Origin: Candidatus Poribacteria bacterium
GTDB lineage: Bacteria; Poribacteria; WGA-4E; JAJDTR01
Reading direction: 5' to 3'
Assembly: GCA_965232235.1 (NCBI GenBank)
Contig: OZ246960.1
Coordinates: 871,058-935,057, forward strand
Length of the DNA stretch: 64,000 bases
Below, in pieces: positions 10,973 to 59,960 of this stretch. The translations under genes and the position numbers were made by a program. The notes under the pieces were generated by a model. The model saw only the letters and a list, made by a program, of their open reading frames with translations. It had not been told where the DNA came from and made no database searches. How positions within the stretch are numbered: position 1 is the first letter of the stretch; each line of letters begins with the position of its first letter.

Positions 10973-11013
10973 TACCCCTTATCGGACTTCCTTAAACCCG
11001 AGGTAAAGCACCA

Positions 11014-11230: not shown

Positions 11231-11419
11231 TCCACATGGCCGAAGGCGAGCTCCGATCCCAGGAAGTCGTTTTCTGGAGTATATGTCCGCCCCGGACCAC
11301 TAACGACTCGCCCCCTAGGTTCGAGGCGCAAATAAAGCCGATGCACGAACGATCCCGACACTTGCCGTCTAACCCTTGAAGTTAGATACTGTACAGCAAT
11401 TACTATCCATCAGAACACC

Positions 11420-12223: not shown

Positions 12224-12235
12224 CGGAGACCGCTC

Positions 12236-14427: not shown

Positions 14428-14545
14428 CCCGAGTTTCTACGTATAGAAAATCCATCGGATTTACATCAGAGTTGAATTGGTCAACCGTTCGCTCCGGCAG
14501 CACGGCATGTTTAAACAGCGTCGATTTAACTCGCAAAGCCCCAGT

Positions 14546-14585: not shown

Positions 14586-14949
14586 TTTGCCCCGCTTTGG
14601 AGAGACTTGATTGACGCTATTAACGCACCGCAGATATATAGAACTGGTATTTCTACATAGAGTCCAGGTTTTCGATCCGGAGGATCGGTATGTCAATAGT
14701 ATACGATATGTCCGAATTTCCGCGTTCCAGCGGAGCGCAATGTGTGGCATACACTTATCCTGACGGGATGATTATCTCATCAAGCAATACTCCTTTTTTC
14801 GCCCTTTGACTGGCTTTGAATTAGTGTTACTTGTGAGAATCCAATAAGGGACATGACGCGCCCAAGCACGTGTGGTATAATTGAATTGTAGGACAAAAGG
14901 GCTGCCTGACGGAATCGGGGCCTTGATTAGGAGCGACACGAGGAAAGCA

Positions 14950-18976: not shown

Positions 18977-19827
18977 CGCAGAAACTCGTTATACCATTTC
19001 GCTTGAATAATAGTGCATACTCTGCCTTAAAACATATCATTCACTTAGCCCGTAGGTGGGGCTTCTTGCCCCGCCGACTTTGCGCGGAGACGAGACTTCT
19101 TGATCCGTTCCACGGAAATTTACTGACCTGATTCACGCGATCAATGCACAAGCATTATAGAGAAATGGTATAGCCGGCGTCAGCCGCATAACAGTGACGC
19201 TGAAAAGGCGTTTGCACCGTCAACGCCTTGGATGATAGCAGGGGCATGTTACAGACAGATGACGATTATGTGAATGCTATCTTTCTATTTTGTTACGATT
19301 CTGTCACATTCCTGCCCCGTTAACACTGTCTTGGGTGCCTGCTCGGGAGCCATCCCCACATCGCGAAAATTCATAGCAACACCCAACCACTGCAGTACCG
19401 AAACTACCCGGAACCCAGTCATATCAAGGCATACAGCCCTTCTCCCGTTTCCGATGAAAACTCCAATTGTTATGAAAAGTATGAAATTTCCCACGACGAC
19501 TATGCCTCTTCTTTAACCGGCGCGACCCGTCCCAAAACCGAATCTTTTACATTTTCTTTCCATGCCACTTCGCTTACCCTCCAACTTTCCATCATTCCGA
19601 TAGCGACTTTGCCGCCTGGTATTCAAGCACGTTCTCATATTTTCCAAACTTTTTAAGGGTAATATTGCGAAAACTATGCGATAATTACGTAGGTTGGGTT
19701 GAGCAGATTTCCATGAAGAATCACATATAGTAGGAAGGCTTTCGATATTTCCGGTTCGCTTGAAACGCCGAAATTCCAGTGAAACCCAACGCTTCATCTG
19801 ATTCATCACACCAGGAACCGAGCATTC

Positions 19828-20632: not shown

Positions 20633-22369
20633 ATGACTTACAACTGCCGACAAGTCTATAGTATCCTAACCGTCGTCGCCGTGCTCGTTTCAATCACGGT
20701 CCCCTTGGAAGCTGAATCGCCGGATTTCCCGGACCGTGTTCCGATGGTAGAACGCCCATTTTCGGATGATCCGGACAAGTTCAGCTTTGCTATCATCGGC
20801 GACAAGACCGGCGGCGGCGAGAACAAGTGGCACGTGTTCGACCGTGCCATAGCCGAAATCAATGCGCTAAAACCCGACTTTGCTATCATGGTCGGCGACC
20901 TGATTCAGGGGTACACGGAGGACATTAGGAAGATTGAGTCGGAATGGATTGAGTTCTGGGGGCGTCAATCGCCTTTGGAAGTCCCCTTTATACCGCTGCC
21001 CGGCAACCACGACATCACCAACCGCGTGATGTACGACTACTGGGTTGAAAATCTCGGGCGCACTTATTCGGCGTTCACCTACAAGCACTGCCTTTTTCTG
21101 CTGCTCAACACGGAGGAATGGCACGGTCTTCCCGAATCAGGCGATAGCGCGCCGGAGAACTGGTTCGGCGATCGGCAAATCGACTACGCGCTCACAGTGT
21201 TGGCGGAACACAATGACGTGCGGCACACCTTTGTTATGCTGCACAAACCCGCATGGCTGCATGAAGACTCGGGTTGGCTTGAGATTGAGGCGGGGCTTGC
21301 CGGACGTGAATACACGGTTTTTGCGGGGCACTACCACAACCTGACGCTGCACTCGCGGAACGACCGTCGCTATTTTGTTCTGGGCGCCACCGGCGGCGCT
21401 TTTACGCCGCGGGCGTCGAAGGAGTTCGGCGCGTTCGATCACTACAGCATCGTAACCGTGGACGGCGGCGATGTGGGCGTTGCGATCATCGAACCCGGCA
21501 ACGTTCATCCGGCGGACATTTCGACGGCGGAATTCAAAGAGAAACTGGCGAGCCTAGTCACATTCGAACCCGATTTCAAGGTCAGCAGGAAACAACCGCC
21601 GTCCCGCGGCACGATTGAAGTGCGGTTGAAGAACACGCTCGAAAATCGTGTCAAAGCCGAACTCGCTTTCATCACCGATACGAACTGGCGGGTAACGCCG
21701 CGCATAGTTACCCTCGAAGCTCAACCGGGGGAGGAGATGAGGAGAATCGTGAAGTTTTCCTGCGCAGCCGACGCGTTGCTCCCCTTCCCTACCTACGGCT
21801 ACGGGATTCTGTACGGTGGGGAGCGGTTGTACGGCCGCGCTGATATAATTAACCCGGTTGACCCGACGGACATGCATTCCGTCAAGGACTGGATGGTTCT
21901 AGGGCCGTTCGACCTGGGCGTGACACAAAAACCTACTACGCCGGGAGAATATCCGGCTGCGTTCACCTCAAACTTCCAGCCGAGGCTGGACACTTCAACC
22001 TACCCGGGGAAAACCGGGCAAATCGGCTGGCAGGAATACCGTACTGGAGATGGTCTGGTTAGTTTGGACGAGGCGTTTGGTGAACCGGATTGGGCAATCG
22101 GATACGGAGTGACCCATATCAAGAGCCCCGAGGATCGGACGGTTCTGGCGGCGGTGCAATGGAACGACATCGGGCGGCTCTTCCTCAACGGCGACGAACC
22201 CTGGGTGCAAATCACGGATAACCCACATTTGGGTTACGTCGAACTGCCATTGCGGGCGGGCTGGAACACCCTAATGGTAAAGTGCGCGAACTACACGGGC
22301 GCATGGAGCTTTCGGATAGCAATCGAAAACCCGCGGGACGACCTCCAATTCTCTAATCGGCAGAAGTAG
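20633..22369 (+). CDS. secreted calcineurin-like metallophosphoesterase with an extra C-terminal domain
   Basis: Signal peptide; GDKTGGGE, MVGDLIQ, PGNHD motifs. Confidence 0.65.
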   Translation: MTYNCRQVYSILTVVAVLVSITVPLEAESPDFPDRVPMVERPFSDDPDKFSFAIIGDKTGGGENKWHVFDRAIAEINALKPDFAIMVGDLIQGYTEDIRKIESEWIEFWGRQSPLEVPFIPLPGNHDITNRVMYDYWVENLGRTYSAFTYKHCLFLLLNTEEWHGLPESGDSAPENWFGDRQIDYALTVLAEHNDVRHTFVMLHKPAWLHEDSGWLEIEAGLAGREYTVFAGHYHNLTLHSRNDRRYFVLGATGGAFTPRASKEFGAFDHYSIVTVDGGDVGVAIIEPGNVHPADISTAEFKEKLASLVTFEPDFKVSRKQPPSRGTIEVRLKNTLENRVKAELAFITDTNWRVTPRIVTLEAQPGEEMRRIVKFSCAADALLPFPTYGYGILYGGERLYGRADIINPVDPTDMHSVKDWMVLGPFDLGVTQKPTTPGEYPAAFTSNFQPRLDTSTYPGKTGQIGWQEYRTGDGLVSLDEAFGEPDWAIGYGVTHIKSPEDRTVLAAVQWNDIGRLFLNGDEPWVQITDNPHLGYVELPLRAGWNTLMVKCANYTGAWSFRIAIENPRDDLQFSNRQK

Positions 22370-22736
22370 GGTGGGCACCGCCCACCGTTTCTCGTAGAGA
22401 TTAATCGGGCAAATAGACTAAGCTCGACTTTGTACATTTGAGCGACACAACAAGCGGTGTTAATCAAACGTTGAAGAAACATTGAGAGTGCGCCATTGTC
22501 CCTGTCGGAATAATTCTTTCAGCAAGCAACACTTTCTGGTCGGAGTCCCTTTCCTCGATCCAGAGGATCGAAATGTTAATAGAATGCGGCATGTCCAGAT
22601 TTCCGCGCTCCAGCGGAGCGCCATGTGGTGTATTGATAGATAGTGTTACTTGAGAGGATTTTAACCATCTGGTCTTTTCGGTTGACCTGTGAAAAAATCT
22701 CAGCGGTTTCTAGTGCCATCACAGCGGGGCAAGATG

Positions 22737-22885
22737 GGATCTCTATCGCACTCACTATTCACTCACTTGACCGTAGGTTGGGTTGAACGGTACCTCGAAA
22801 AACTCACACATGGAGCACACATACCTTCGAATCTCCACATCCGCTTATAGGCACCAAAATCTTCGTGAAACCCAACACCTCAGCC
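22737..22885 (+). repeat. R1 repeat copy followed by a REP-like gtaggttgggttgaac..(90 nt)..gtgaaacccaac
   Basis: Seen directly. Confidence 0.5.
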
Positions 22886-22910
22886 AACCTCAACAATGAA
22901 GGCAAGCTTT

Positions 22911-23702
22911 ATGTCCATTTACCTTGAACCGTCACAACTCAATTTTTGGGAAACTAACGGCTATCTCAGAATTCCCGGTTTTTTATCGGATAGCGAGGTT
23001 TCCGCACTGCGTCAATGGGTTGCCGAAATCGAAGGCTGGGAGCAGGATCCGGGTAGATGGATCCACCACTACGAATCGGTATCGGATGGCACCAGGCTCT
23101 CGCGTACCGAAGACTTCATTCCGTATCACGAGGGAATGAAATCGACACTGACGAGCGGCAAAGTGCCGGACGTTATCTCGGAGTTGACCGGAGAGCCAGC
23201 CGTTCTCTACAAAGAGAAAATCAACTACAAATATCCCGGCGGCGGCGGTTATGCCCCTCATCAGGATGCCCCCGCCTACGAGTTCGTCAAAAACCACACC
23301 ACATGCTTAATCTCGATAGATGCGTCGACGGCAGAGAACGGGTGTCTGTACTTCTCGCCCGGGCGGCATCGCGAGGGCATGATTGCGCTGGACGCTGACG
23401 GCTGTATTGATCCCGACGTTGCAGATAGCATGGATTGGGTTGCCGCGCCCACGCAGCCGGGCGACATTCTGTTGTTCAGCTCCTACGTTCCGCACAAGAG
23501 CGGCGAAAACGGCTCAAATCTCCCCAGACGCATCATCTACGCCGTCTACAATAACCTCTCCGACGGCGATTGGCGCGACAAATATTACGAGGACAAGCGT
23601 CAAGCTTTTTCACAATATGCGGGGGACGAGTCGGGAAAATCCGGTCAAATCAGTAAGATAGCCCATTTTCAAGGAAGGACGGTTTTGAACCATGAAGAAT
23701 AG
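22911..23702 (+). CDS. PhyH-family Fe(II)/2-oxoglutarate dioxygenase, PhnY-like candidate
   Basis: YAPHQDAPAY ..VPHKS.. HxD...H facial triad; PhyH-like N-terminus; about 265 aa. Confidence 0.5.
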   Translation: MSIYLEPSQLNFWETNGYLRIPGFLSDSEVSALRQWVAEIEGWEQDPGRWIHHYESVSDGTRLSRTEDFIPYHEGMKSTLTSGKVPDVISELTGEPAVLYKEKINYKYPGGGGYAPHQDAPAYEFVKNHTTCLISIDASTAENGCLYFSPGRHREGMIALDADGCIDPDVADSMDWVAAPTQPGDILLFSSYVPHKSGENGSNLPRRIIYAVYNNLSDGDWRDKYYEDKRQAFSQYAGDESGKSGQISKIAHFQGRTVLNHEE

Positions 23703-24288
23703 CCCCCACGAAACGCTCGCGGAGGACATGACAGGCGCATCGAGCAGTCAGAAGGTTGCCGCCTTATTCGACTTTATGATGCGGAGAGGACAGACTTTCT
23801 ACGACGAGTCCGTGACGCAACTTGAACACGCGCTCCAATGCGCCAACCAAGCGAAAATTCATGACGCCACGGCAACGCAGATAACAAGCGCCCTGCTGCA
23901 TGATCTCGGTCATTTTCTGCTGGACGAGCACAACGCCGACAAAGCGTTTTTGGCGGACGACCTGAATCACGAAGCGGTGGGCGCGGAGTTTATGGAGGCG
24001 TTCTTCCCGGATGCGGTAACGACGCCGGTGCGGTTGCACGTTCCCGCAAAACGCTACCTCTGCACGACAGACGCGGCGTACTACGACGGATTATCCGAAG
24101 CGTCAAAGCGAAGTTTACGAGTTCAGGGTGGTGTGATGTCGGATGAGGAGCGGTCCGCGTTTGAGCGAATCCCCCATTTCGAGGATGCGCTCAGCTTGCG
24201 CCGGTGGGACGATCTCGCGAAAGTGAAAAACCTCGAAACACCCGGGTTGGAGACTTACCGCGGCGTTGTAGAGAGTTGTTTGCGGTGA
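23692..24288 (+). CDS. HD-domain phosphohydrolase/oxygenase, PhnZ-like candidate
   Basis: ALLHDLGHFL HD motif; about 195 aa; start overlaps the stop of the PhyH gene. Confidence 0.45.
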   Translation: MKNSPHETLAEDMTGASSSQKVAALFDFMMRRGQTFYDESVTQLEHALQCANQAKIHDATATQITSALLHDLGHFLLDEHNADKAFLADDLNHEAVGAEFMEAFFPDAVTTPVRLHVPAKRYLCTTDAAYYDGLSEASKRSLRVQGGVMSDEERSAFERIPHFEDALSLRRWDDLAKVKNLETPGLETYRGVVESCLR

Positions 24289-24353
24289 GGCGTTAGGGAT
24301 TGCCAATTCGTATCGATGCACCGCCTGCGTACAGAATCACAGCGAAACCCAAC

Positions 24354-24680
24354 TTACGCATTTTCGGTGTTGACGCTTACACGTTCTCTGATTTCGGCGC
24401 GAAGATCGTTTGCTGCATTATTAAGTTGTTCTGTGAATTTCCTCGTGTCCTCATGAATCGCTTGGGAGTTGGCATCAATCTTATCGGAATGTCGTTGGAT
24501 TTCAGATCGCATGTGGCGCATCTCTTCGCGAATTTCATTAGTGATCGCAAGCGTTGCAGAAAATCCGTGATTAAGGGTAATTGTGAGTTTGGTGATCCTG
24601 CTACCTATGTGCTTTCCCCGTTTATCGATTGAGCGATCCATATCAACCTTGCTCTGAAATCGCCACCCCAACAAAAACAC
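24354..24680 (-). CDS. hypothetical coiled-coil protein (108 aa)
   Basis: ORF track only. Confidence 0.25.
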   Translation of the reverse strand: MFLLGWRFQSKVDMDRSIDKRGKHIGSRITKLTITLNHGFSATLAITNEIREEMRHMRSEIQRHSDKIDANSQAIHEDTRKFTEQLNNAANDLRAEIRERVSVNTENA

Positions 24681-24929
24681 CGTAACTCAGATTCCCAGAA
24701 ATGTACACAAATTGACTATAAGCAGAAGCCATACCGTCAAAACATCAATAGAGTTGTCCATTGTCTCAAACTCTACCTTCTACGCCAAATTCTCAAGCCG
24801 TTTCGCTCCAAATTAACTGCATACCCAAATCACACGCCGCCAATTAAAACGATTCAATTGTTTTGGATACATGCAGTCTGGACGAAGTCGGAAATTTTAT
24901 AGCCATCAATCGCACCCTTCAACTTGTGA

Positions 24930-26456
24930 TTACCCTAATATAAGCGGCAGGATGAAGGGCACAATCAACTTCTGAATCACGGTTAGCGTTCCAAAGATTG
25001 AATAAAACACGGCGCACAGCACCAGCCCAATCTGCCGCCAAACCGGAGGCCAAATCTCTTTCGGCAGGAACTTCCGGTTCACGTAAAGCGTGTGCAGCGA
25101 CGTAATCACCAGCAGGTATCCGCCAATCGTCGCGGAAACCAGAATCATGAAAAACGGTTTGGCTAGGTACATGGCGACGACGCCCCAAAGAATATAAACG
25201 ATGAGAATAGGATAATAGATGTATTTCGCATCCGATTCTTTCATTCCCCTCGCCTTTGAGAACCCTGTCCAGATGATGTCCGTGTAACGACGCGGAACCA
25301 TGTCCACGTTGCCCAACTGCGTGGAAAATAGCACCCAAAACCCGCACAACAGTGTAAGATACCAAAAGATTTGCCCACCCTTCTCCGCGAGTCCCTCCGC
25401 TTGGAATGCCGCTGCCGACCACTCGTCAATCGCCTGCCCCGCCGGGACAAATGAAATGGTTAGCATTGCGGGAAGCGCCATCCCGAAAAAGCAGCCTACC
25501 ACCCAGATATAGTATTGCTCGAAGCGGTTATACTTCCACCACTCGCGGAAGCGTTTCACGTTTTCCGGGGTAATTCGAAACACCTTGCCGAGATGCGACA
25601 GCGTCACCTTCTGCCCGCCGATTATCGACGGTATGGCTCCAACCAGTCTGCTCATGCCCCAGCCCTTATCGCGGACGTAGTTGGTAATGGTAATGTTCCC
25701 CAATCCGCCGCTGCCGGCGAACGCCGCAAACGCACCGAGCAGCAGCCAGTCAATCCCGCCGCCGCCCTCGTCCGGCGAAGGCAATGCGCCGAAACTAAAG
25801 AACCCTTTGATAACCGTCCACCAAACCTTCGGGGAGACCATGAAGATGTCGATGATGAGCAGGTATCCGATAATCCATACGACCATGACGAGTTGAACTT
25901 TCTCAAGGGCGTTATAGATTTTGCCGCCGAACAGAACAATAAAAAGACAAACGAAGAAGATGAGATACGCAAATGTCCGAACCGTTCCCTGATCGGCATC
26001 GGCGGGCATATACCCCAACCACGCGGCGGCAACGGCTGTAGCCGCCGCCATCGCCCAGCCGGGCCAGATCCCGAAGAAGTCGATGATTGAATAGAAGAAC
26101 GCCCAGAACCGCGACCCCGGACGGCACCGCATGTAGCCGCTCAACATCGGTTCGCCCGTGTAAAGGGTGTAGCGTATGGATTCCGTGTTGAGGAACGCCT
26201 GAAGGAAGATGGCAATCGACGCTATCCAGAGTAGCCTGCCGCCGTATTGTGCCGTAATCGCGGGACCTAACAGCCATTCCCCGCTGCCAATCGATCCGCC
26301 AAGCATGATGATTCCAGGACCCAGGATATTGCGAAATGCACCCCCGAAACGGTAGGCCGGCGGTGCGGGTAGATCATGAACCTCCCAGTCCGGCAAACAC
26401 CCGCCGGGGACCGTTTCCGCGGCTGATCTGTCCGTGTTATTTTGATTTTCTGCCAT
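24930..26456 (-). CDS. NRAMP-related polytopic membrane transporter (variant motif)
   Basis: LGPGIIMLGGSIGSGEW..YGGRLLW matches the NRAMP TM1 region, with GSGE in place of DPGN; more than 10 predicted TM helices. Confidence 0.45.
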   Translation of the reverse strand: MAENQNNTDRSAAETVPGGCLPDWEVHDLPAPPAYRFGGAFRNILGPGIIMLGGSIGSGEWLLGPAITAQYGGRLLWIASIAIFLQAFLNTESIRYTLYTGEPMLSGYMRCRPGSRFWAFFYSIIDFFGIWPGWAMAAATAVAAAWLGYMPADADQGTVRTFAYLIFFVCLFIVLFGGKIYNALEKVQLVMVVWIIGYLLIIDIFMVSPKVWWTVIKGFFSFGALPSPDEGGGGIDWLLLGAFAAFAGSGGLGNITITNYVRDKGWGMSRLVGAIPSIIGGQKVTLSHLGKVFRITPENVKRFREWWKYNRFEQYYIWVVGCFFGMALPAMLTISFVPAGQAIDEWSAAAFQAEGLAEKGGQIFWYLTLLCGFWVLFSTQLGNVDMVPRRYTDIIWTGFSKARGMKESDAKYIYYPILIVYILWGVVAMYLAKPFFMILVSATIGGYLLVITSLHTLYVNRKFLPKEIWPPVWRQIGLVLCAVFYSIFGTLTVIQKLIVPFILPLILG

Positions 26457-26741
26457 ATCGTCTCCGATTTCCCGTAGGGTGCGCGCTGCGCACCGGCCTT
26501 TTGCTCCTTCGCAACCAAGAGGCGATTTCTATCGCAGTGCGTCGGCAAATGATGGCGGGCAATGCCCACCCTACACATAGGCTATTCATTCGGTTGATCG
26601 CTATTCGCTCATTTGACTTCGTTATTCAGGCGCATAATCGATTGTTGGATATCGTTTGTTCCCACCCTTACATGCTATCGCGACCGGGAGGTCGCTCCTA
26701 CAAAATCCGTGTCAATTTACGCCATCCCATAGTTCCAATCT

Positions 26742-27716
26742 TTAAGGCGTTTGTGCGCCCTGTGTCTCCACATAGAGCGAATATAAAGATTGGCTGCCAG
26801 CCATAAACAGCCGATTCCTCTTGACGCCGCCGAAGCACAGATTGGCGCAAACCTCGGGGAGATGGATTCTGCCGATGAGGTCGCCGTCCGGGGCGAAGAC
26901 GTGTACCCCGTCGAATCCTTCGCCAGCCCAGCCCGCCGACGCCCACAGGTTGCCGTCAATGTCGCAGCGTATGCCATCCGAAGTTCCCGGCGCCATGTCG
27001 CAAAAATTCCTGCCGTTCGTCACGCTCGAACAGTCCACGACATCGTAGACGCGGATGTGACGAGAATGATCCGGCTTGTGCGAGACGCCGGTGTCAACCA
27101 GATAGAGACACGAGTAATCGGGCGAGAAACATAGTCCGTTCGGTTTCTCAAGTTCGTCTACCACCACGGTTGCCTCGCCGGTATCCGGATTGAGGCGGTA
27201 GACGTTGGTCGGTAACTCGAAATCTGCCCGGTGTCCCTCATAATTCAAGAGTATCCCGTACCCCGGATCGGTGAACCAAACGTGCCCGTCTTTGTGCACC
27301 ACCGCATCGTTGGGCGCGTTCAAGCGCTTGCCCTCGAACATGTCCATCAGTACCGTGATTGTGCCGTCAAGCTCGGTGCGCGTGACGCGGCGTGCGCCGT
27401 GTTCACAGGTAATCAGCCGCCCCTGTTTGTCGCGCGTGTTGCCGTTGCTGTTGTTGGAAGGCGATCGGTAGACGCTAACCTCGCCCGTCGCCTCCGTCCA
27501 ACGCAAGATTCTGTTATTGGGGATGTCGCTCCAAAGGAGATAGCGTCCATCGCCAAACCATACGGGGCCTTCCGCCCAGCGGCAACCGGTCCAGAGACGT
27601 TCCACCGCCGAATTTCCAATTGCATAATTTTTAAACCGCGGATCGAGTATTTCTATTGCCGGATCGGGATACCGAACCGGTCCCCCATCCCAATTTCTAT
27701 TCATAGATGCCTCCAC
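26742..27716 (-). CDS. SMP-30/gluconolactonase/LRE-like beta-propeller hydrolase
   Basis: EGPVW, LLWSDIPNNRI, NAPNDAVV, WFTDPGYG motifs. Confidence 0.75.
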   Translation of the reverse strand: MEASMNRNWDGGPVRYPDPAIEILDPRFKNYAIGNSAVERLWTGCRWAEGPVWFGDGRYLLWSDIPNNRILRWTEATGEVSVYRSPSNNSNGNTRDKQGRLITCEHGARRVTRTELDGTITVLMDMFEGKRLNAPNDAVVHKDGHVWFTDPGYGILLNYEGHRADFELPTNVYRLNPDTGEATVVVDELEKPNGLCFSPDYSCLYLVDTGVSHKPDHSRHIRVYDVVDCSSVTNGRNFCDMAPGTSDGIRCDIDGNLWASAGWAGEGFDGVHVFAPDGDLIGRIHLPEVCANLCFGGVKRNRLFMAGSQSLYSLYVETQGAQTP

Positions 27717-27943
27717 CGTGTTTCTCTACCGAATCCATAAGTAGGGTACGGCCCTTGTGCCGTACCGAAACCAGGAGTAACAATCATGATTGCCCCGACC
27801 GGACTGTTTGCGATCTACTGACGCCAATTGGGGAGAGGTCCGTAGGTTGGGTTGAACCCCGTGAAACCCAACATTTTGGCTTTCATTTCTTCGTTCGTTA
27901 AGATTTAGACGACGTGGAAGCGTACCTTCCACTCTTCCGTCCC

Positions 27944-29101
27944 TCACTCCGACGAAAACGTGAACAGAAGGCTGTGGCTATAGACATCTCCCGGACGCAG
28001 AATAACCGATTGCCAACCGGGCGTCCCCTCTTTGTTGATTGCATCCGGAAAGTGCTGGGTTTCGAGACAGAACCCCGCATGTTTTTTGTAGACCGTATCG
28101 TCCTTGCCGGTGAGTGAACCATCAAGGTAGTTGCCGGTGTAGAGTTGCACCCCCGGCGCGTCTGTGTGCACTTCCATCTTGCGACCGGAACTCGGTGCAC
28201 TGACACGTGCCGCCAATCTCATCTCCCCCGCCTCCCCATTGAGAGCGAAATTGATGTCGTATCCTCCCGGATCCTCGCCGCCATCCCCGGGCAACTGTCC
28301 AATGTCCCGTCCAATCGGTTTGGATTCGCGGAAATCGTACGGCGTGTTTTCCACCGATGCAATCTCGCCGGTGGGGATGACCGTTTCGTCGGTCGGCGTG
28401 TAGTTGTCGGCATTCAGGCTCAATTCGTGCTTGAGGATATCGCCGGCGTCATGCCCGGCGAGATTCCAGTACGCATGATTGGCAAGATTCACGATGGTGG
28501 GCGCATCGGTTTCTGCGCGCATATCTATCCGAAGGTCGCGCGTCATTAGGGTGTAAGTGACCGTCACCGTCAGGTTGCCGGGATAGCCCTCTTCGCCGTC
28601 GGGGCTGACGTATTTCATTGTCAAGAACGCACCGTCGGCGCCTTTCTTTGACTCTACGACATCCCACACCTTTTTGTCAAAGCCCTCCTCGCCGCCGTGC
28701 AGGTGGCTGGGACCGATGTTGGTCGCGAGTGTGTACTCCTTTCCATCAAGCGTGAATTTGCCGTCGGTGATGCGGTTCGCGACTCTGCCGACAGTGCAGC
28801 CGAAATACGGGTGACCGGCGAGGTAGCCGTCAAGCGTATCGAATCCGAGGGCGACATCGGCGTTCTCCCCGTTGCGGTCAGGGAGGTGAAGTTCCGTGAG
28901 GAGCGCCCCGTAGTTGGTGATTTTTGCGGTTATGCCGTACCCGTTCTTGAGCGTGTATAGATAAACGGGTGTGCCGCCAACCGTTCCCCATTCGCTTTTG
29001 TGGATACCTGCGCCGCCGTGCCCTGTAACGTGTGCTCGGGCGGACGTCACCAGTAAGCCCACCATGAGCATTAACGCAACTGTGTATACGGAAATTCCCA
29101 T
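27944..29101 (-). CDS. galM: aldose 1-epimerase (galactose mutarotase), secreted
   Basis: Signal peptide; HLHGG and characteristic mutarotase blocks. Confidence 0.75.
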   Translation of the reverse strand: MGISVYTVALMLMVGLLVTSARAHVTGHGGAGIHKSEWGTVGGTPVYLYTLKNGYGITAKITNYGALLTELHLPDRNGENADVALGFDTLDGYLAGHPYFGCTVGRVANRITDGKFTLDGKEYTLATNIGPSHLHGGEEGFDKKVWDVVESKKGADGAFLTMKYVSPDGEEGYPGNLTVTVTYTLMTRDLRIDMRAETDAPTIVNLANHAYWNLAGHDAGDILKHELSLNADNYTPTDETVIPTGEIASVENTPYDFRESKPIGRDIGQLPGDGGEDPGGYDINFALNGEAGEMRLAARVSAPSSGRKMEVHTDAPGVQLYTGNYLDGSLTGKDDTVYKKHAGFCLETQHFPDAINKEGTPGWQSVILRPGDVYSHSLLFTFSSE

Positions 29102-29410
29102 CGTTTACCTCCTTGGAATAGAGAATGAATTTCTTTTCGAATCTTCAGATTATCCTTCTAAATCTGTAGGGTGCGCACGGCGCACCAGCCTTTTCTCATG
29201 CAAGATACCCCGTAGATTGAATAGTGCACGGTAAAGAATCCAGACAACGAGTGCTTGCGGTAGGAGAGAATTCCAATTCCTGATGTGTGTGGATACTCAT
29301 CGCTCGGGATTAGCAATCAGGATTCTCTATCGCGCTCTCTATGCGGTCGCTTGTACCTTCCTTATTCAATCGCTTGATTATTACCACCGCAATCCAATAG
29401 CACTCACGAT

Positions 29411-29623
29411 TCATCTGCGCCAGTATGTGCGAGGCTTCTTCCGAGTTTTGCTAGCCTCGCGCTTTTTCTTCTCCTCTAGTTTCGCGTGGTAGAGTTGATG
29501 ACACTCACGGCAGAGCGCGGTTAAATCTGTGAGCCGCTCTTTGCCTCGGCGTTGGTAATTCACGTGATGCACCTCGGTGGCGGGGGCACCGCAGACGCGA
29601 CACTTCCCGCCAGATTTTTTCAT
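29411..29623 (-). CDS. small HNH nuclease-motif protein (70 aa)
   Basis: CRVCG..EVHHVNY..N..CRECHQLYH; the ORF could extend upstream into repeat-derived sequence. Confidence 0.45.
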   Translation of the reverse strand: MKKSGGKCRVCGAPATEVHHVNYQRRGKERLTDLTALCRECHQLYHAKLEEKKKREASKTRKKPRTYWRR

Positions 29624-29821
29624 GATGGTATCGCGCTTTGATTTCCATTTTGACGATCCCAGATACGACCTGTAATTGCGTTGACGTGTTTGCTTGGACG
29701 GTTGATGTTGTCTTTTTCGCTGCGCCACTGTGAACCATCCTTTCGAGTAAATGTCAGCACTCCTGTAGGGTGCGCACCTGTCGAAGTTATGAAATATGAG
29801 TAGGATGGGCGATCCCCCTGG

Positions 29822-30245
29822 GACCTCTATCGCGCTCATTATCCATTCGCTTGATTCTCCCACAATCGGGGAACAATAAGCTCTATCGGGATTGGATACC
29901 GTACCCAATGTCTCACGTGGCACTCCGCTGGAGTGCAGGAACTGGGACTTTTCCTTTCTATTGACATGCCGCCCCTCCGGGGCGGGGAGCCGCGTTCTGG
30001 AGGGGATCTCTGTGGGAACGCTATCGCGCTCATTATCCATTCGCTTGATCCTCCCACAATCGGGGAACAATAAGCTCTATCGGGATTGGATACCGTACCC
30101 AATGTCTCATATGGCACTCCGCTGGAGTGCAGGAATTGGGACTTTTCCTTTCTATTGACATGCCGCCCCTCCGGGGCGGGGAGTCGCGTTCTGGAGGGGA
30201 TCTCTGTGGGAACGCTATCGCGCTCATTATCCATTCGCTTGATCC
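29822..30245 (+). repeat. 194-bp tandem direct repeat (2.15 copies), each unit holding R1 + hairpin + ttctattgacat + GC hairpin
   Basis: The consensus starts at 29827, 30021 and 30215. Confidence 0.8.
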
Positions 30246-30291
30246 CCGCTCCTATGAAGATGGTGGGCGGTGCCCACCCTACAGATCTCGT

Positions 30292-31260
30292 TCAGGCCTC
30301 AGAGGCTTGTTGCTTTGCCCTTCGCTTGGCGGCGAAACGCTTGATGAACTCGTCGACCGTGACGCCGATCAGAATCACGCTACCGATCACCGTGAACTCG
30401 GACTCGGTGGCAACGTTTAGGAAAAACACCGCGTTCTTTATCACTTCGACCATCGCCGCCCCGCAGATGATGCCGCCGATAGTTCCCTCGCCGCCGCGAA
30501 GGCTGCACCCTCCGAGCACCGCGCCCGCAATGGCGTACAACTCGTAAAAGTTTCCGAACGTCGAGGGTTGAACCGAGTTCTGATCCAGCGCGAACAGCAT
30601 CCCTCCAAACCCCGCCAGCACCGAGCAGATCATGTAGGCACAGATGACCATCCGATCCGTGTTGATTCCGCTGAAGCGTGCCGCCTTTTCGTTTCGACCA
30701 AGCGCCAACAGGTAACGTCCGTATACCGTTTTGTTGAGAAAGAGCGCAGCGATGCCCCCGAGCAGCAGAACAATCACGAACGGCATCGGGATGACGTCAA
30801 ACACCCGGTACTTCACGATGAGGCGCAATCCCTGAAAATCGTTGCCGAAACCTTGGTTAATCTCACCCGTGATGTACCGGGCGACGCCGCGGTAGATGAA
30901 CAGCCCGCAGAGCGTGACGATGAAGGGTTGCAACTTGAGCTTGGTGATTAACAGCCCGTGCGCGAAGCCGATTGTCAACGCTAGAAAGATGACCAGAGCG
31001 AAACCGACGCCGACGGGCAGCCCTTTACCGACCAGAAAAAGCGGAAAGAGCGAACCGGACAGCCCGATCAGTGAGCCGATCGAGAGATCGATGCCGGAGG
31101 TGATAATTACAAACCCCGCCCCGATAGCCAGGATACCGTAGAGCCCCGTCCACCGCGCCATGTTCGTCAAGTTGCCGACTCCCAGAAAGAGCGGCTCGAT
31201 TATCCCGGTGATGAGGAAGATGACTGCCAAGAGCAGGAAAATTGCCAGCGTCTTTTTCAT
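30292..31260 (-). CDS. sugar ABC transporter permease (RbsC-like)
   Basis: 8-10 TM helices; family-typical blocks. Confidence 0.8.
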   Translation of the reverse strand: MKKTLAIFLLLAVIFLITGIIEPLFLGVGNLTNMARWTGLYGILAIGAGFVIITSGIDLSIGSLIGLSGSLFPLFLVGKGLPVGVGFALVIFLALTIGFAHGLLITKLKLQPFIVTLCGLFIYRGVARYITGEINQGFGNDFQGLRLIVKYRVFDVIPMPFVIVLLLGGIAALFLNKTVYGRYLLALGRNEKAARFSGINTDRMVICAYMICSVLAGFGGMLFALDQNSVQPSTFGNFYELYAIAGAVLGGCSLRGGEGTIGGIICGAAMVEVIKNAVFFLNVATESEFTVIGSVILIGVTVDEFIKRFAAKRRAKQQASEA

Positions 31261-31364
31261 GAATCTTAACCGTTATGCACTTCGGTTTGTAGAAGTTTGG
31301 TTCATCCAGGGTTGGGGATTGCGTTCACGGTCTAAAGACAACCTGCTATAGTATTTCAATGGGG

Positions 31365-31760
31365 ATTCTATCGCACCTGAGATTACTCGCTTGATTCCAC
31401 CCCACAACTATCCGGCCGGTTGATGTACGGCTGATTCATGCTTACGGAGTATTGGGGCATACCCCACATAGCGCTCCTCTGGAGCGCGGGGTTTTGGTCA
31501 TCGCTATTCTATTGACATTGCGCTCCTCTGGAGCGCGGAAATGGGACTAATACCATTTCGCTTGAATAACAGTGCATATAGAGCCTGTTTGAATACTCGA
31601 TAGCCAAGCAATTTTGGTCATTTATAGGAAGTTTTTTCGCGTTTTTATATTTGTCTGTCGCGTATCTGTCGCCCCGCTGGGGCTTAGGTGCATGGGGCTT
31701 TGGCGTTTCTATATACCTTCCGCCCACTGGGGCTTTTAAAGGCTGGTGCGCAGTGCGCAC
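31365..31760. repeat. intergenic repeat mosaic: R1 copy, ttctattgacat module flanked by gcgctcctctggagcgc hairpins, gccccgctggggc hairpins, REP gtagggtgcgcactgcgcacc
   Basis: Seen directly. Confidence 0.6.
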
Positions 31761-31942
31761 CCTACAAATGTACTTTTTAAACAGGTTCTATAGTGTTTTC
31801 CTTATACTATTATGAAATGCCCCATACCAACTGTTGCGCTTCACACCAAACCCCGTAGTCGGGAATCAAACTAACGAATAGTGAGTGCGATAGAGATTCC
31901 CTTGCCCCGCTTTGGAAAGACTTGATTGACGCGATTAATACA

Positions 31943-33484
31943 CTACCAATTTTCGGCTGACCCAGTTGCCAGTCCCATGACCGCCTCTTCACTGAGCATA
32001 TCGCGCCCGAGTTCACCCGCCAGCGCTCCATCGTGCATGACCAACACACGATCCGAAATCCGAAGAATCTCCTCAAGGTCACTGGAAATTGCCAAGATAG
32101 CTACACCCTGACCTGCCAGGTCTTCGATCAACTGGTAAATCTCGCTCTTGGAGCCGACATCAATACCCCTGGTAGGCTCGTCTAGGAGGAGGACTTTCGG
32201 TTTGAGGGAGATCCACTTGGCGAGCACCACTTTCTGTTGATTGCCGCCGGAGAGCAGCCCGACCTCGTTTTCGATGGAAGTTGTCTTCACATTGAACTCG
32301 TCCACCGCATCCGCCGCAAGGTCGGCGACCTCCTTCTGGCGCACGAACTTTCCTGTCTGATAGCGGTCTAGCGCGGACAACGAGATATTGTCGCGGACGG
32401 CTAACTCCGTAATCAGCCCGTAATCGCGGCGATCCTCAGGTACGAGCGCGATGCCCGCGTTGATTGCGTCGCGGGGGTTGTTGATTTCTACAATCTCTCC
32501 GTCTACCGCAATCGTCCCGGAGACAGCGCCGTCGACGCCGAAGATTGCCTGCGCCAACTCCGTCCGCCCCGCTCCCACGAGACCCGCCATGCCAACCACT
32601 TCGCCGGCGTGGAGCGTGAAATTGATGGGGCGATCCGTATGCCCGGGCACCACCAAATCGGCGACCTCAAGCACCGGCGCACCTCTCTGATGTTCTTCAT
32701 GTTGATAGAATTGCGTCAGCGATCTTCCCACCATCAGCGATACCATGCGCTCATGGTCAATCTCGCGGCGCTCCAACTCGCCGCTATTTTCACCGTCTCT
32801 GAGAACAATGACCCGGTCGGCTATCTGACCGACTTCCATCAGGCGATGGGAGATGTAGACGATACAGACGCCCCGGGATTTCAGACTTCGGATAAGATTG
32901 AAGAGGCGGTCCGTTTCGTGTTGAGTCAGGCTGCTCGTCGGCTCATCCATGATGATCATCCGGGCGTTCTGGGACAATGCCTTGGCGATCTCCACCATCT
33001 GCTGGTGCCCGATGGAAAGCTCACGGACGGTTGTCTCGGGATTGCAGTCCATCTCAAGTTGATCTAGGATATCGCGGGTGTCCCGGCGAATCGCTTTCTG
33101 GTCGATGATACCGATTCCCCCGAACTTGCGCGGCTCCCGTCCGAGGTAGATATTCGCCCCTACGCTCAAATTGTCCGAGAGATTGAGCTCTTGATGAATA
33201 AATGCGATTCCCAGCTCTGTTGCTTTGGAGACTGTCGTGATGGTCACCGGTTGCCCTTCAAGCGTGATGCTTCCCGCGTCGGGCGGATGGACGCCGGCGA
33301 TGACCTTCATCAACGTGCTTTTGCCCGCGCCGTTTTCCCCGATGACCGCAACGACCTCTCCGGCGTGAAAGACGGCATTCACGTGGTTCAGCGCGTGCAC
33401 CCCCGGGAAGCGTTTGTGTATTCCAGTCGCCTCCAGGAAGGGGTTTGCATCAGTGTTCGGCATAGTATTTCCGGGATTTGTCAT
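31943..33484 (-). CDS. sugar ABC transporter ATP-binding protein (duplicated NBD, RbsA/MglA-like)
   Basis: Two Walker A motifs (GENGAGKST, GLVGAGRTE), signature LSGGNQQK, Walker B. Confidence 0.85.
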   Translation of the reverse strand: MTNPGNTMPNTDANPFLEATGIHKRFPGVHALNHVNAVFHAGEVVAVIGENGAGKSTLMKVIAGVHPPDAGSITLEGQPVTITTVSKATELGIAFIHQELNLSDNLSVGANIYLGREPRKFGGIGIIDQKAIRRDTRDILDQLEMDCNPETTVRELSIGHQQMVEIAKALSQNARMIIMDEPTSSLTQHETDRLFNLIRSLKSRGVCIVYISHRLMEVGQIADRVIVLRDGENSGELERREIDHERMVSLMVGRSLTQFYQHEEHQRGAPVLEVADLVVPGHTDRPINFTLHAGEVVGMAGLVGAGRTELAQAIFGVDGAVSGTIAVDGEIVEINNPRDAINAGIALVPEDRRDYGLITELAVRDNISLSALDRYQTGKFVRQKEVADLAADAVDEFNVKTTSIENEVGLLSGGNQQKVVLAKWISLKPKVLLLDEPTRGIDVGSKSEIYQLIEDLAGQGVAILAISSDLEEILRISDRVLVMHDGALAGELGRDMLSEEAVMGLATGSAENW

Positions 33485-35019: not shown

Positions 35020-35130
35020 GATCTTTATCGCGCTCCTTATCCAGTCGCTTGATCCTACGAACGGAGTGGGGAATCGCGATTCGGCGATCGCTCCTACAGA
35101 AGGATGGCCCAGGTTCTTTATCGCGCGAGA
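35020..35130 (+). repeat. R1-family repeats at the left border of the lower-GC island
   Basis: gatctttatcgcgctccttatccagtcgcttgatcc. Confidence 0.5.
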
Positions 35131-39089: not shown

Positions 39090-39270
39090 TCGCTATCGCG
39101 CTCATTATCCATTCGCTTGATCTCCGTCTGGAGTGGGGAGTCGCGATTCGGAGCGGATCTCTATCGCAGGATTTACTATCGCCCGGGATCAACTATCGGG
39201 ATTCACTATCGCGCTCATTATCCATTCGCTTGATCGTACGTTATTCACTCACTTGATTCTTATCAGCCGG
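39090..39270 (+). repeat. cluster of R1-family repeats
   Basis: At least four consecutive tatcgc..ttgatc units. Confidence 0.6.
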
Positions 39271-43317: not shown

Positions 43318-43923
43318 GTAGGGTGGGCATTGCCCACCATCTCCCTCTTGGTGCAAACCCCCAGTCCTAGCGCAACCACAGCCCAATTTCCGAGGCGACG
43401 ACCATTTTTCCGGCTTTGAACAATCAAGCTACGTGCACGCGTGTTCTCGGAACGGGCGGGGAAACCCCGCCCCTACATTGTTTTCCTCGAACTGCCCACC
43501 CGGTTGAATTATCTTACGTTATAGACGGAAAAAGGCTGGTGCGCGGTGCGCACCCTACGATGCTATCGCGACCAGGAGGTCGCTCCTACCAAATCCTACA
43601 ATCACAACAATTTTACGTGAGTAGGGTGGGCATTGCCCACCATCTCCCTCTTGGTGCAAACCCCCAGTCCTAGCGCAACCACAGCCCAATATCCGTGGCG
43701 ACGGCATTTTTCCGGATTTGATAAATCGAGCAACGTACCTGCGTGTTTTCGGAACGGGCGGGGAAACCCCGCCCCTACATTGTTTTCCTCGAACTGCCCA
43801 CCCGGTTGAATTATCTCACGTTATAGACGGAAAAAGGCTGGTGCGCGGTGCGCACCCTACGACACTATCGCGACCGGGAGGTCGCTCCTACCAAATCCTA
43901 CAATCACAACAATGTTACGTTAG
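43318..43923 (+). repeat. 303-bp tandem duplication (2 copies) made of four REP-like hairpins
   Basis: Copies start at 43318 and 43621; each contains gtagggtgggcattgcccacc, ggcggggaaaccccgcccctaca, ggctggtgcgcggtgcgcaccctac, atcgcgaccgggaggtcgctcctac. Confidence 0.8.
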
Positions 43924-50108: not shown

Positions 50109-50137
50109 TTGACTCTAATCTCACAATCTGCTATAAT
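50109..50137 (+). promoter_or_regulatory. near-consensus sigma-70 promoter TTGACT-N17-TATAAT
   Basis: TTGACT at 50109..50114, 17-nt spacer, TATAAT at 50132..50137; AAGGAAA ribosome-binding site then ATG at 50196. Confidence 0.6.
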
Positions 50138-59319: not shown

Positions 59320-59960
59320 CGTAACGGGCGAGGGAAGATCTCTATCGCCTTCCTTGTTCAGTCAGTTGATCCTCGCCCCTACAGGTCAAATGGCTCGACA
59401 GAGCATAGTCGCGATTCGGAGATCGCTCCTACAACCGTATAGCTCACATTGCACTCCGCTGGAGTGCGGAGATTTGACGTATGGTGTTTCTATTGACATT
59501 GCACTGCGCTGCAGTGCGATGGAAGGTGTGGGACTTACTATCGCGCTCGTTATTCACTCGCTTGATCCCACCCTACAACTGCTAAATCGCGACCTGGAAA
59601 TCGCTCCTACAAATGGAGAGAAATCTCTATAGCGCCCGATGCCTCACATTGCGCTCCGCTGGAGCGCATAGGCGAATATGGCGATTTTCTATTGACATGC
59701 CGCTCCGCTGGAGCGGGGAATCGCGACCGGGAGGGGGATTTCTATCGTCCTCGTTATCCACTCGCTTGATCGTTCCTACAGGTCAAATCATGCCGGTGTC
59801 CATGCCCGACGCGACATTTTGGTTAAGGGGATTTCCTATCGTCCTCCCTATCCGGTCGGTTGATGGATTCCCGCGGGATTTACTATTAGGATTTGCTACC
59901 GCACTCACTATCCGTTCGCTTGATCCCTCGCTATTCGGTCGGTTGATCTCCGTTGGTTGA
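59320..59960. repeat. dense cluster of R1 repeats plus two ttctattgacat+hairpin modules and GTAG-REPs
   Basis: Seen directly. Confidence 0.65.

Follow-up and report, generated by a model that had tools for sequence, protein, structure and literature searches.

A probable REP/BIME-like mosaic of short interspersed hairpin repeats in the intergenic DNA of Poribacteria, likely maintained at the DNA level

Modular intergenic repeats with stable stem-loops, a high copy number and a distribution restricted to one lineage are exemplified by BOX in Streptococcus pneumoniae and Correia/NEMIS in Neisseria. BOX contains a variable number of an internal unit of about 45-50 nt (boxB). Both BOX and Correia have defined inverted termini, and Correia elements also show TA duplications, a promoter and IHF sites. 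The insertion sequences IS608 and ISDra2 have two similar subterminal hairpins in direct orientation on one strand, read as single-stranded DNA. The SDR of heterocystous cyanobacteria, ascribed to Elhai et al. in 2008 and cited in PMC3116915, are reportedly shorter than 40 nt and inserted within other repeats and hairpins. In REPs, one end carries a GTAG or CGTC tag that stays unpaired (PMC3733652), and the REP consensus listed for H. influenzae is GTAGGGTG[CG]GC..GC[CG]CACC (PMC2817692). Insertion of the IS200/IS605 type occurs without target duplication and beside a short specific sequence (PMC6006769).

The window, i.e. the whole stretch of 64,000 nucleotides of Poribacteria DNA that was analysed, contains a 194-bp tandem duplication. 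This duplication had been noticed in an earlier sequence-only reading and was borne out by TRF, with a period of 194 bp, 2.2 copies and 96% matches at 29819-30245. The 194-bp unit consists of one hairpin module and a degenerate GCGACC-type REP broken by a short repeat, the box (CTATCGCGCTCATTATCCATTCGCTTGAT). Three box copies, starting at 29827, 30021 and 30215, bound and punctuate the tandem, one at the start of the array, one between the units and one at the end. The features of this region are:

29819..30245, + strand: tandem array of 2.2 x 194 bp (from TRF, box positions and sequence)
29827..29855, 30021-30049 and 30215-30243, + strand: box copies, direct repeats bracketing the duplicated 194-bp unit
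30262..30282, - strand: canonical GTAG REP (GGTGGGC ggt GCCCACC CTAC), separating the tandem from the stop codon of the ABC permease gene
31267..31961, strand unassigned: 695-nt repeat block between the ABC ATPase and permease genes

Module c3 lies in the 695-nt block, accompanied by two boxes, GCCCC hairpins and a GTAG REP (31745-31765). An exact-protein look-up of the ABC permease of the window returned no record. The repeats create spurious ORFs, for example 29411-30070.

The order of parts in a module is a C(A/G)CAT tag, hairpin A with a 7-bp stem and a 3-nt loop, a spacer of 19-20 nt, the 12-mer TTCTATTGACAT and hairpin B. The five modules described in the sequence-only reading were all recovered, with the 12-mer exact at 29956, 30150, 31507, 59488 and 59687, always on the + strand, but two diverged copies on the minus strand had been missed, which gives a total of 7 in the window. 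The 13-mer TTTCTATTGACAT is exact in only four of the five, because the sequence at 31506 is ATTCTATTGACAT. With up to 2 mismatches to the 12-mer there are 9 matches in the window against 1.42 expected, a number that none of 100 shuffles reached; the match at 47021 is without hairpins and was counted as a chance match. The hairpins flank the 12-mer where they had been placed, with perfect 7-bp stems (8 bp once) and 3-nt loops, and the three hairpin variants quoted were correct. The spacer before the 12-mer exists as well, although it measures 19-20 nt and not 17-20 nt. The tag 5' of hairpin A (CTCACAT, CCACAT) corresponds to the GACAT 5' of hairpin B, and the hairpin starts are 49-50 nt apart; the module is therefore a head-to-tail doublet of one unit of about 50 nt. 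The modules and the repeats beside them are:

29912..29985, + strand: module c1, tag CTCACGT, hairpin A 29920-29936, 12-mer 29956-29967, hairpin B 29969-29985
30106..30179, + strand: module c2, hairpin A 30114-30130, 12-mer 30150-30161, hairpin B 30163-30179
31464..31536, + strand: module c3, tag CCACAT, hairpin A 31471-31487, 12-mer 31507-31518, hairpin B 31520-31536
59443..59517, + strand: module c4, tag CTCACAT, hairpin A 59451-59467, 12-mer 59488-59499, hairpin B 59501-59517 (GCACTGC/GCAGTGC)
59538-59566, + strand: box 3' of module c4
59643..59716, + strand: module c5, tag CTCACAT, hairpin A 59650-59668 (8 bp), 12-mer 59687-59698, hairpin B 59700-59716
59723..59782, + strand: GCGACC-type REP (GCGACC GGGA GG^TCGt TCCTACA) directly 3' of c5, split by a box at 59735-59769
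22549-22628 (core), - strand: module c6, diverged, 12-mer variant TTCTATTAACAT
22482..22659, - strand: full-length element of about 175 nt, subfamily A, containing module c6
14666..14745, - strand: module c7, diverged, 12-mer variant TACTATTGACAT, hairpin A with one mismatch, hairpin B CGATCC/GGATCG

In module c3 hairpins A and B are identical in sequence and a partial box follows at 31553-31566. The subfamily A element around c6 is laid out as CAAGTAACAC, the two hairpins and GTGTTGCTTG, followed by a tail running from GAATTATTCC to GGGACAATGG, and has 94-96% identity to copies in another species (OZ244829.1).

A pattern scan with GGAGYGC-N17-22-TTCTATTGACAT, in which matches were listed as 8-kb stretches, gave at least 115 stretches. 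Among the matches listed, 110 came from nine Poribacteria species genomes; the other 5 are without hairpins and were regarded as chance, as was a single match in viral contigs, located in AT-rich DNA without hairpins. No module was present in the 21 kb examined of a more distant relative. At least 243 12-mer sites (at most 1 mismatch) were counted in 939 kb, in the window and in the listed loci, whose selection depended on the 12-mer and on the 3' arm of hairpin A. The copy number is high; at least 83 of these sites are in 36 stretches (288 kb) of one chromosome that was sampled. Throughout the family the unit of about 50 nt is made up of a short tag that is unpaired and ends in ACAT, a GC-rich hairpin with a perfect 7-bp stem and an NCT loop, and a spacer with TTCTATTG at its end; nearly all copies have C(A/G)CAT as the tag of hairpin A and TTGACAT as that of hairpin B. 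Usually two and sometimes three hairpins follow one another head to tail, and the joined units are set in elements of 150-260 nt. Distances between 12-mers on the same strand have maxima at 50 nt (17 pairs) and 150-260 nt. The elements form mainly intergenic arrays (26 of 238 12-mer sites are within crude ORF calls, and at least part of these calls are spurious, being ORFs that run through repeats) in which nearly all copies of a locus have the same orientation and are mixed with canonical GTAG REPs and the box. Hairpin types and spacer types combine freely, and at least six different palindrome sequences, each exactly compensated, occupy the same position. A literature search found no description of intergenic repeats in Poribacteria.

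The compensatory changes in the hairpins that the sequence-only reading had pointed out are frequent, with 136 double-sided changes and 97.8% of 1260 stem cells in Watson-Crick pairs, compared with 20-48% paired in slid controls. Only 3 of the 1260 cells are G-U pairs, the counts being taken over copies and not over independent events. T.G and C.A mismatches in the stems are equally rare, with no strand asymmetry. In 48 copies of one subfamily the per-site diversity is about 0.01 or less in the 12-mer, hairpin B and its loop and 0.11-0.32 in the spacer, closing stem and tail, and the low-diversity core persists when copies are collected via the tail.

Copies are polymorphic for presence and absence at orthologous sites, where relatives are empty, differently filled or have a swapped cassette. 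The ABC junction measures 8 nt in the syntenic relative OZ242354.1 and 695 nt of repeats in the window, with no target-site duplication seen at this insert. The c4/c5 site is module-free in L091, and at a place where 122 nt are found in the window, L091 has three modules in tandem. In L035, two modules of another subfamily with a period of 238 nt occupy the site of the 194-bp tandem. In one pair with flanks 92-99% identical, one element differs by an exchanged spacer and hairpin B, and another element occurs in only one of the genomes. One composite filled site of 401 nt could be compared with its empty site and has a 7-bp direct repeat, TTCTATC, at the flanks; a repeat resembling a target duplication was seen in this case only, and the insertions seen are composite. 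An automatic search for filled and empty sites gave four events, one ordinary IS and otherwise composite ones, and no single-element pair with defined termini, and further indels, aligned by hand, proved too scrambled for interpretation. The family behaves like gained-and-lost repetitive DNA and not like a promoter.

The box is a separate, non-palindromic repeat of about 36 nt with the full sequence RGGATYT-CTATCGCRCTC-RYTATYCAYTCGYTTGATC, of which 29827..29855 is the core. It iterates with a 23-nt period and contains TTATCCAC, which resembles a DnaA box; resemblances to attC, dif/Xer, IHF and DnaA-box sequences are only partial. The box is found in arms and loops of hairpins of three different repeat families and splits about one quarter of the hairpins. 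Excision of the box restores a perfect hairpin by a strict test in 37 of 296 cases and in 40 of 587 controls, a value weakly above the control; the test for stems across the box is clearer, with 21 of 289 against 3-4 in the control. In nesting inside hairpins the box, but not the module, resembles SDR, to which it is unrelated in sequence, and its mobility would follow from positions alone.

Compared with known systems the module family is most similar to REP/BIME repeats (Di Nocera et al. 2013, PMC3733652; Nunvar et al. 2010, PMC2817692). In these sources REPs appear as GC-rich palindromes of 20-40 nt with an unpaired conserved end tag, hundreds of extragenic copies, mosaic blocks shared with other short motifs, several stem variants per genome and other repeats nested in or around the palindromes, and all of these have counterparts here. 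The GTAG REPs in the same Poribacteria arrays have the H. influenzae consensus given above (PMC2817692). The substrate of REP processing is folded single-stranded DNA with a 5' tag (Corneloup et al. 2021, PMC8266576), and the layout of the module is the same. The differences are the ACAT tag, the fixed head-to-tail pitch of 49-50 nt in place of inverted (HH/TT) dimers, the invariant 12-mer between the hairpins, a RAYT gene not flanked by modules and, relative to classical REPs, arrays that are commoner between divergent than between convergent genes (24 and 10). As in the REPIN/RAYT system (Bertels and Rainey 2011, PMC3116915), non-autonomous hairpin repeats occur in a genome with a single-copy, syntenic RAYT. 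The replicative unit of REPINs is, however, an inverted doublet, whereas module hairpins have inverted neighbours in only 3 pairs among 259 hairpins (939 kb), and the search turned up no RAYT that would belong to the ACAT-tagged hairpins. Two direct-orientation hairpins on one strand are also a feature of IS200/IS605 ends and their gene-less derivatives (PATEs), but no TnpA/TnpB gene with such ends was found in the 939 kb and the window, the module hairpins are only 32 nt apart, units are sometimes triplicated and no defined element ends were found. With BOX and Correia the module has no sequence similarity, and inverted termini, TA duplications and promoter/IHF sites were not seen here.

The search for a mobilising enzyme was made by tblastn with IS200 TnpA and RayT sequences and with the Poribacteria RAYT as queries. 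RAYT (in L039 at 2654-3232) was the only Y1 transposase found in the 939 kb and the window; it is closest to cyanobacterial RAYTs (about 58% identity) and is present in these genomes together with the canonical GTAG REPs. No candidate gene bracketed by inverted module hairpins was found in the 939 kb. Multi-copy ORF families near modules, considered as transposases, proved to be ordinary paralogues (FG-GAP, PD40, PhyH, sulfatase, DUF6785) with no fixed position relative to the modules.

We consider it probable, from the comparison of sequences, that the modules form a new REP/BIME-like mosaic of short interspersed intergenic repeats that is specific to Poribacteria and maintained at the DNA level. 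Among the possibilities raised in the sequence-only reading, a MITE with hairpin termini comes closest to the evidence, the family being dispersed, lineage-specific and polymorphic for presence. It is not a classical MITE, because the hairpins are direct and not inverted, target-site duplications were not seen consistently and conservation outruns the inverted repeat: the TIR-like pair CAAGTAACAC/GTGTTACTTG encloses the hairpins in one subfamily, with conservation running about 40 nt past it, and is absent from the + copies of the window.

Small structured RNAs (sRNAs or cis-acting), with the closing stem, both hairpins and the tail hairpin as RNA helices and the 12-mer as a single-stranded recognition sequence, would account for stems kept through double changes and for the full-length element folding as a closing stem and two hairpins. 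The identity of the c6-type element across species exceeds that of coding DNA and would fit a functional RNA or a binding site as well. The closing-stem variant GTGTTGCTTG retains pairing on the module strand alone, in the form of U.G (23 T.G against 15 A.C/C.A), and placement free of orientation is compatible with independent sRNA genes. We nevertheless judge a family of RNA genes unlikely: Rfam 15 gave no match at the gathering score in the whole window and none at E<=5 in 22300-32000, the folding z-scores are weak and alike on both strands (-1.7 and -1.6), G-U pairs are nearly absent from the hairpins with loops invariant within a subfamily, and the closing stem has no compensatory double changes, only the recurrent T.G variant. 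Gain, loss and cassette swaps at orthologous sites and the splitting of hairpins by the box likewise argue against RNA genes, and scans for promoters and terminators found no sigma-70-type promoter or intrinsic terminator at the modules. A dispersed sigma-70 promoter, in which the TTGACA of the 12-mer would be the -35 element, had also been suggested and is extremely improbable. The hexamer is perfect and invariant and the arrays are somewhat enriched between divergent genes, but no -10 hexamer is found 16-18 nt 3' of any module TTGACA, because that position falls in the GC-rich hairpin B; the sequences there are, for example, GAGGAA, GAAACC and GCAGAC, with no TAnnnT in any subfamily. The promoter scan of 29700-31960 gave nothing at modules, and all 7 modules of the window are antisense, pointing away from or against the flanking genes. 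Family-wide, 47 arrays are antisense and 31 in the same sense to both flanking genes (p=0.09, a non-significant bias), with 24 between divergent and 10 between convergent genes. The orientation of copies showed no replichore pattern relative to chromosome position or GC skew, the strand counts among the matches listed being probably biased.

The near invariance of the 12-mer, hairpin B and its loop points to constraint on sequence rather than structure, as would be the case if the arrays were bound by a chromosomal protein, be it nucleoid-associated, regulatory or replication-related, that reads the 12-mer and/or the palindromes as duplex, and were retained for host use in the way proposed for BIMEs that bind IHF and gyrase. 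The 17-bp palindromes resemble dimer sites, and the regular 50-nt pitch, the enrichment between divergent genes and the accompanying box with its 23-nt period and TTATCCAC could be read in the same way. Six or more exactly compensated palindromes at one position nevertheless fit a folded hairpin better than a protein reading duplex, no candidate protein was found and turnover between species is rapid, which leaves host-retained binding sites distinctly unlikely, although such a role is compatible with the REP/BIME-like mosaic and does not exclude it. That the module hairpins are themselves canonical REPs, i.e. substrates of the resident RAYT (TnpA-REP) like the local GTAG REPs, appears very unlikely from the sequence comparisons in spite of the common geometry (a GC-rich stem of 7 bp, a loop of 3 nt and a short 5' tag left unpaired), the shared arrays and the RAYT encoded in these genomes. 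The tag is ACAT and not GTAG or CGTC, the REPs beside RAYT at four loci (L039, L122, L123 and L124) all carry the GTAG tag, with no adjoining ACAT-tagged hairpin, and the module hairpins are head to tail and not in the inverted dimers that are typical of REPINs and BIMEs (PMC3733652).

For the REP/BIME-like mosaic, the constraint would be on DNA, and the tag and hairpin, folded as single-stranded DNA, are probably recognised by a protein specific for both sequence and structure, either an enzyme or a DNA-binding one, much as HUH/Y1 enzymes read REPs and IS200/IS605 ends. The activity of such an enzyme, together with recombination among copies, may have spread and homogenised them. The 194-bp tandem is presumably secondary: a composite unit with a box copy on either side could have been duplicated by replication slippage or unequal recombination between the two boxes, box-X-box becoming box-X-box-X-box. 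A more speculative possibility, to which we give little weight, is an undescribed mobility system in which a putative enzyme acting on folded single-stranded DNA moves or copies the ACAT-tagged head-to-tail units and the box, with their shared core TTCTAT as recognition or joining site; the resident GTAG-REP/RAYT pair would not be part of this system.

Poribacteria are uncultivated sponge symbionts, and their genomes are known from MAGs and long-read assemblies only. The repeats take up the space between their genes and disrupt short-read assemblies; two cotranscribed transporter genes can be pushed 0.7 kb apart by them. The coexistence of a canonical REP/RAYT pair with a second hairpin family, which has another tag, and with a very small box nested in hairpins makes these genomes a natural system for the origin, diversification and recognition of hairpin repeats, and the near-invariant 12-mer suggests that there may be a specific reader worth seeking.

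The 194-bp tandem duplication and the five modules claimed by the sequence-only reading are both present in the window. Tandem Repeats Finder gave a 194-bp period with 2.2 copies and 96% matches, and a scan for perfect GC-rich hairpins placed hairpins with a 7-bp stem (once 8 bp) and a 3-nt loop on both sides of all five exact copies of the 12-mer TTCTATTGACAT. The total is seven modules rather than five, as two diverged minus-strand copies had been overlooked; a further hairpin-arm scan found none beyond these in the window. The one-nucleotide-longer form (13-mer), with at most two mismatches, has nine sites in the window against 1.42 expected, a number reached by no shuffle.

Repeat features of the window and the transposase gene of a relative
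14666-14745, minus strand: module c7, diverged
22549-22628, minus strand: module c6, diverged
29819-30245: 194-bp tandem duplication
29956, 30150, 31507, 59488 and 59687, plus strand: exact 12-mers of modules c1-c5
29827-29855, 35025-35053, 39093-39121, 39206-39234, 57101-57129 and 62454-62482: examples of the box, a second repeat
22366, 26474, 29166, 30262 (minus), 31745 (minus), 43318, 43538 (minus), 43621, 43840 (minus) and 57180 (minus): GTAG REPs, hairpin repeats intermixed with modules
31267-31961, ATPase stop to permease start: 695-nt ABC block with module c3, boxes, a GTAG REP and other hairpins
2654-3232 of the relative's stretch L039: RAYT, a 192-aa Y1 transposase with a Pfam Y1_Tnp match

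Alignment of the five copies showed a conserved tag, CTCACAT or CCACAT, before hairpin A and TTGACAT before hairpin B, with 49-50 nt between the hairpin starts. The matching tags and this pitch show the module to be one unit repeated head to tail, the unit being made up of a tag ending in ACAT, a hairpin and a spacer. The tandem has the layout box-X-box-X-box, being bracketed and punctuated by the box CTATCGCGCTCATTATCCATTCGCTTGAT at 29827, 30021 and 30215. A complete or partial box lies within about 45 nt after each plus-strand module of the window, so the 194-bp unit is made up of a module and a degenerate REP that is split by a box. The tandem appears to be a secondary duplication between the box copies on its flanks, for which unequal recombination or slippage would be the mechanism. 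ORFs of 88-219 aa across the tandem (29411-30070 and 29839-30234, minus strand; 29892-30158, plus strand) are almost certainly spurious products of the repeats, since a relative has a different sequence in the orthologous region.

The box is non-palindromic and about 36 nt long (consensus RGGATYT CTATCGCRCTC RYTATYCAYTCGYTTGATC); the window has 26 copies of it, and 939 kb of relatives (L006-L120) have 289-296. About a quarter of the module hairpins are interrupted (hairpin B 45 of 231, hairpin A 56 of 231), and in these the box separates GCAC from TCC in the 5' arm. It is also hosted by GTAG REP loops, a GTAG REP at 5838-5905 has it in reverse, and it splits the GCGACC-type REP at 59723-59782, directly after module c5. 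Its 3' 23-nt half can iterate (59904-59948). The box core TTATCCAC shows a possible resemblance to a DnaA box. The hexamer TTCTAT has 44 copies in the window against 21.5 expected. Three repeat families contain it, in the 12-mer, in the box start TTCTATCGC and in GGCGTTTCTATATACC (31700-31716).

Other repeats are found in the same window. A 302-bp tandem duplication at 43318-43924 (2.0 copies, 93%) combines GTAG REPs, GGGCGGGG hairpins and GCGACC REPs, and is a mosaic array of the same kind without the module. Dispersed elements at 5870-6054, 9982-10143, 18991-19172 and 31579-31789 are 85-97% identical to sequences of other Poribacteria species; the last has GCCCC-nnn-GGGGC hairpins, with a GTAG REP at its end. 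At 1900-14430 is a series of paralogous ORFs, each about 1.1 kb long, with many segments 60-85% identical (repeat families D1, D5-D20); module c7 is a short way downstream of the final ORF. A 108-nt tandem repeat at 50336-50643 (2.8 copies, 83%, internal 21-nt period) is apparently within a coding region (ORF 50109-50651).

Homologues of the ABC permease (30292-31260, minus strand) are 78-81% identical and carry the name Candidatus Poribacteria. Scanning one genome per species with the pattern GGAGYGC-N17-22-TTCTATTGACAT gave at least 115 stretches of 8 kb, and among the matches listed 110 came from nine Poribacteria species genomes. The other five listed, in Faecalibacterium, Algoriphagus, Dyadobacter, Bacteroidales and Armatimonadota, were rejected as single chance matches, as was the one pattern match in viral contigs. 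The 12-mer with at most one mismatch has at least 243 sites in these loci and the window, and at least 83 in 36 stretches (288 kb) of the chromosome OZ244829.1. The repeats are absent from 21 kb of a more distant relative (permease 81% identical, GC 49.5%).

In other genomes the module is embedded in longer elements. The commonest subfamily, about 165 nt, has CAAGTAACAC, CCACAT, hairpin A, a spacer and the 12-mer, followed by hairpin B (TCGATCC TCT GGATCGA), GGAAAGGGACTCCGACTAGAAA, GTGTTACTTG and a tail hairpin GAATTATTCC..GGGATAATGG. The window copy at 22482-22659 (minus strand) belongs to it and is 94-96% identical to copies in OZ244829.1, the figure for orthologous genes of the nearest sampled relative being 83-91%. 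Elements of mixed subfamilies abut head to tail in arrays, almost all copies within a locus have one orientation, and neighbours in inverted orientation are very rare (3 of 259 hairpins). Same-strand spacing between 12-mers peaks at 150-260 nt and at 50 nt (17 pairs), the latter representing three hairpins in succession.

Canonical GTAG REPs, GTAGGGTG[CG]GC-nnn-GC[CG]CACC, occur in the window and in relatives, and the H. influenzae (Haemophilus influenzae) REP in the list of Nunvar et al. (PMC2817692) has the same consensus. The L039 RAYT shares about 58% identity with proteins from cyanobacteria that bear the name REP-associated tyrosine transposase, and 36.6% with an E. coli RayT sequence. 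GTAG REPs flank it, and the loops of several contain a box. Orthologues from two further genomes (L122-L124) have the same gene neighbourhood, once inverted, and only GTAG REPs as flanks; the gene is single-copy and syntenic in relatives. Another insert of about 36 nt, GTCGGTGATTATCAAATCACTGATTTCCGATCTTAC, lies a short distance upstream of the RAYT gene (L123 and L124, 2800-3000), within GTAG REPs arranged in tandem, so REP hairpins there host more than one kind of small insert. Two published accounts define REPs by a GTAG or CGTC tag and by flanking a RAYT (PMC3733652, PMC8266576); the module hairpins do not fit this description and were rejected as canonical REPs. No transposase other than RAYT was found near modules in the sampled loci of relatives, where the recurrent gene neighbours are ordinary paralogue families.

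Per-site diversity was calculated for 48 copies of one subfamily, drawn from five genomes: it is at most about 0.01 in the 12-mer, hairpin B and its loop, and reaches 0.11 in the tail, 0.18 in the tail hairpin, 0.19 in the spacer and 0.32 in the 5' closing arm. Hairpin B is within one mismatch in 58 of 60 copies collected via the tail; the 16 without an adjacent 12-mer mostly have boxes between 12-mer and hairpin. The near-invariance of this core indicates that something reads it by sequence, loop included. As a role for the modules, binding by a host protein appears unlikely. The dispersed promoter proposed earlier is very unlikely: the modules have a -35 hexamer alone, the place of a -10 is taken by hairpin B in every subfamily, and a promoter and terminator scan reported none at modules.

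An RNA function would be favoured by the paired stems. In 90 distinct gap-free modules (1260 stem cells), standard pairs make up 97.8%, against 88.8% in shuffles and 20-48% with partners slid, and the compensatory changes noticed earlier hold, with both sides changed in eight pairs (136 cells), counted on copies that are not independent events. Loci were ascertained via the 12-mer and the 3' arm of hairpin A, which leaves hairpin B as the unbiased hairpin. G-U occurs in only 3 of 1260 cells and T.G and C.A mismatches are equally rare, so the stems are discrete, exactly complementary alleles (GCACTCC, GCGCTCC, TCGATCC, TCACTCC, GCACTGC, CCGCCCC and others), which combine freely with three spacer types. 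Gradual RNA compensation seems to explain such a pattern less well than a constraint on a DNA palindrome, or the shuffling of copies, would. Folding of the full-length element yields a closing stem and two hairpins, with modest z-scores alike on both strands (-1.7, -1.6); the closing stem has no double changes and only a frequent T.G variant. Rfam gave no match in the whole window at gathering score and none at E<=5 for 22300-32000. Arrays are antisense to both flanking genes in 47 cases, sense in 31, between divergent genes in 24 and between convergent genes in 10 (antisense versus sense, p=0.09), and two complete chromosomes showed no orientation pattern along their length. The antisense arrangement of all seven window modules is thus not a family property. 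An RNA function appears unlikely.

Comparison of orthologous sites shows turnover. OZ242354.1 is syntenic with the window, and the gap between ABC ATPase and permease is 8 nt there against 695 nt in the window; the last ATPase codons differ, which indicates that insertion of the block reshaped the gene end. The 614-nt c4/c5 spacer corresponds to 275 nt without a module in the OZ242354.1 stretch L091, which has three tandem modules with a 256-nt period where the window has 122 nt. The site of the 194-bp tandem is occupied in a relative by two modules from a different subfamily, which have a 238-nt period. Between CBDBEE and OZ244829, with flanks 94-96% identical, a module-bearing 401-nt block is present or absent (L071 6119-6519 versus L050 2249-2255), with the 7-bp direct repeat TTCTATC on both flanks. 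Between OZ244829 and JAJDTR (flanks 92-99% identical) the left and right parts of one element are common to both, but its spacer, hairpin B and tail have been replaced by those of a different subfamily, and a second element is in one genome only. The filled/empty comparisons gave no clean single-element insertions with defined ends. An ORF at 59783-61504 (minus strand) has a weak P22-like portal match (E=5e-7), which suggests that the region from 59783 to about 64000 may be prophage-like; it is syntenic in L091, and the positions colonised by the repeats differ between the two genomes.

For the module family, REP/BIME-type repetitive DNA is the explanation with the best support, and we regard it as fairly probable. 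The units persist as exact palindromes with a sequence-specific core, copies are gained, lost and exchanged, and together with GTAG REPs and the box they make up mosaics. An enzyme that reads single-strand hairpins may move or homogenise them, by analogy with REP/RAYT and IS200/IS605; none was identified among the sampled loci. Less usual features are the ACAT-tagged doublets joined head to tail, the invariant 12-mer and the nesting of the 36-nt box in hairpins of three repeat families. No paper on intergenic repeats of this type in Poribacteria was found, the repeat sequences appear in no relevant paper, and the family is undescribed in the literature searchable here. The finding in the window is real: it represents a single local cluster within a large family of intergenic hairpin repeats specific to Poribacteria.
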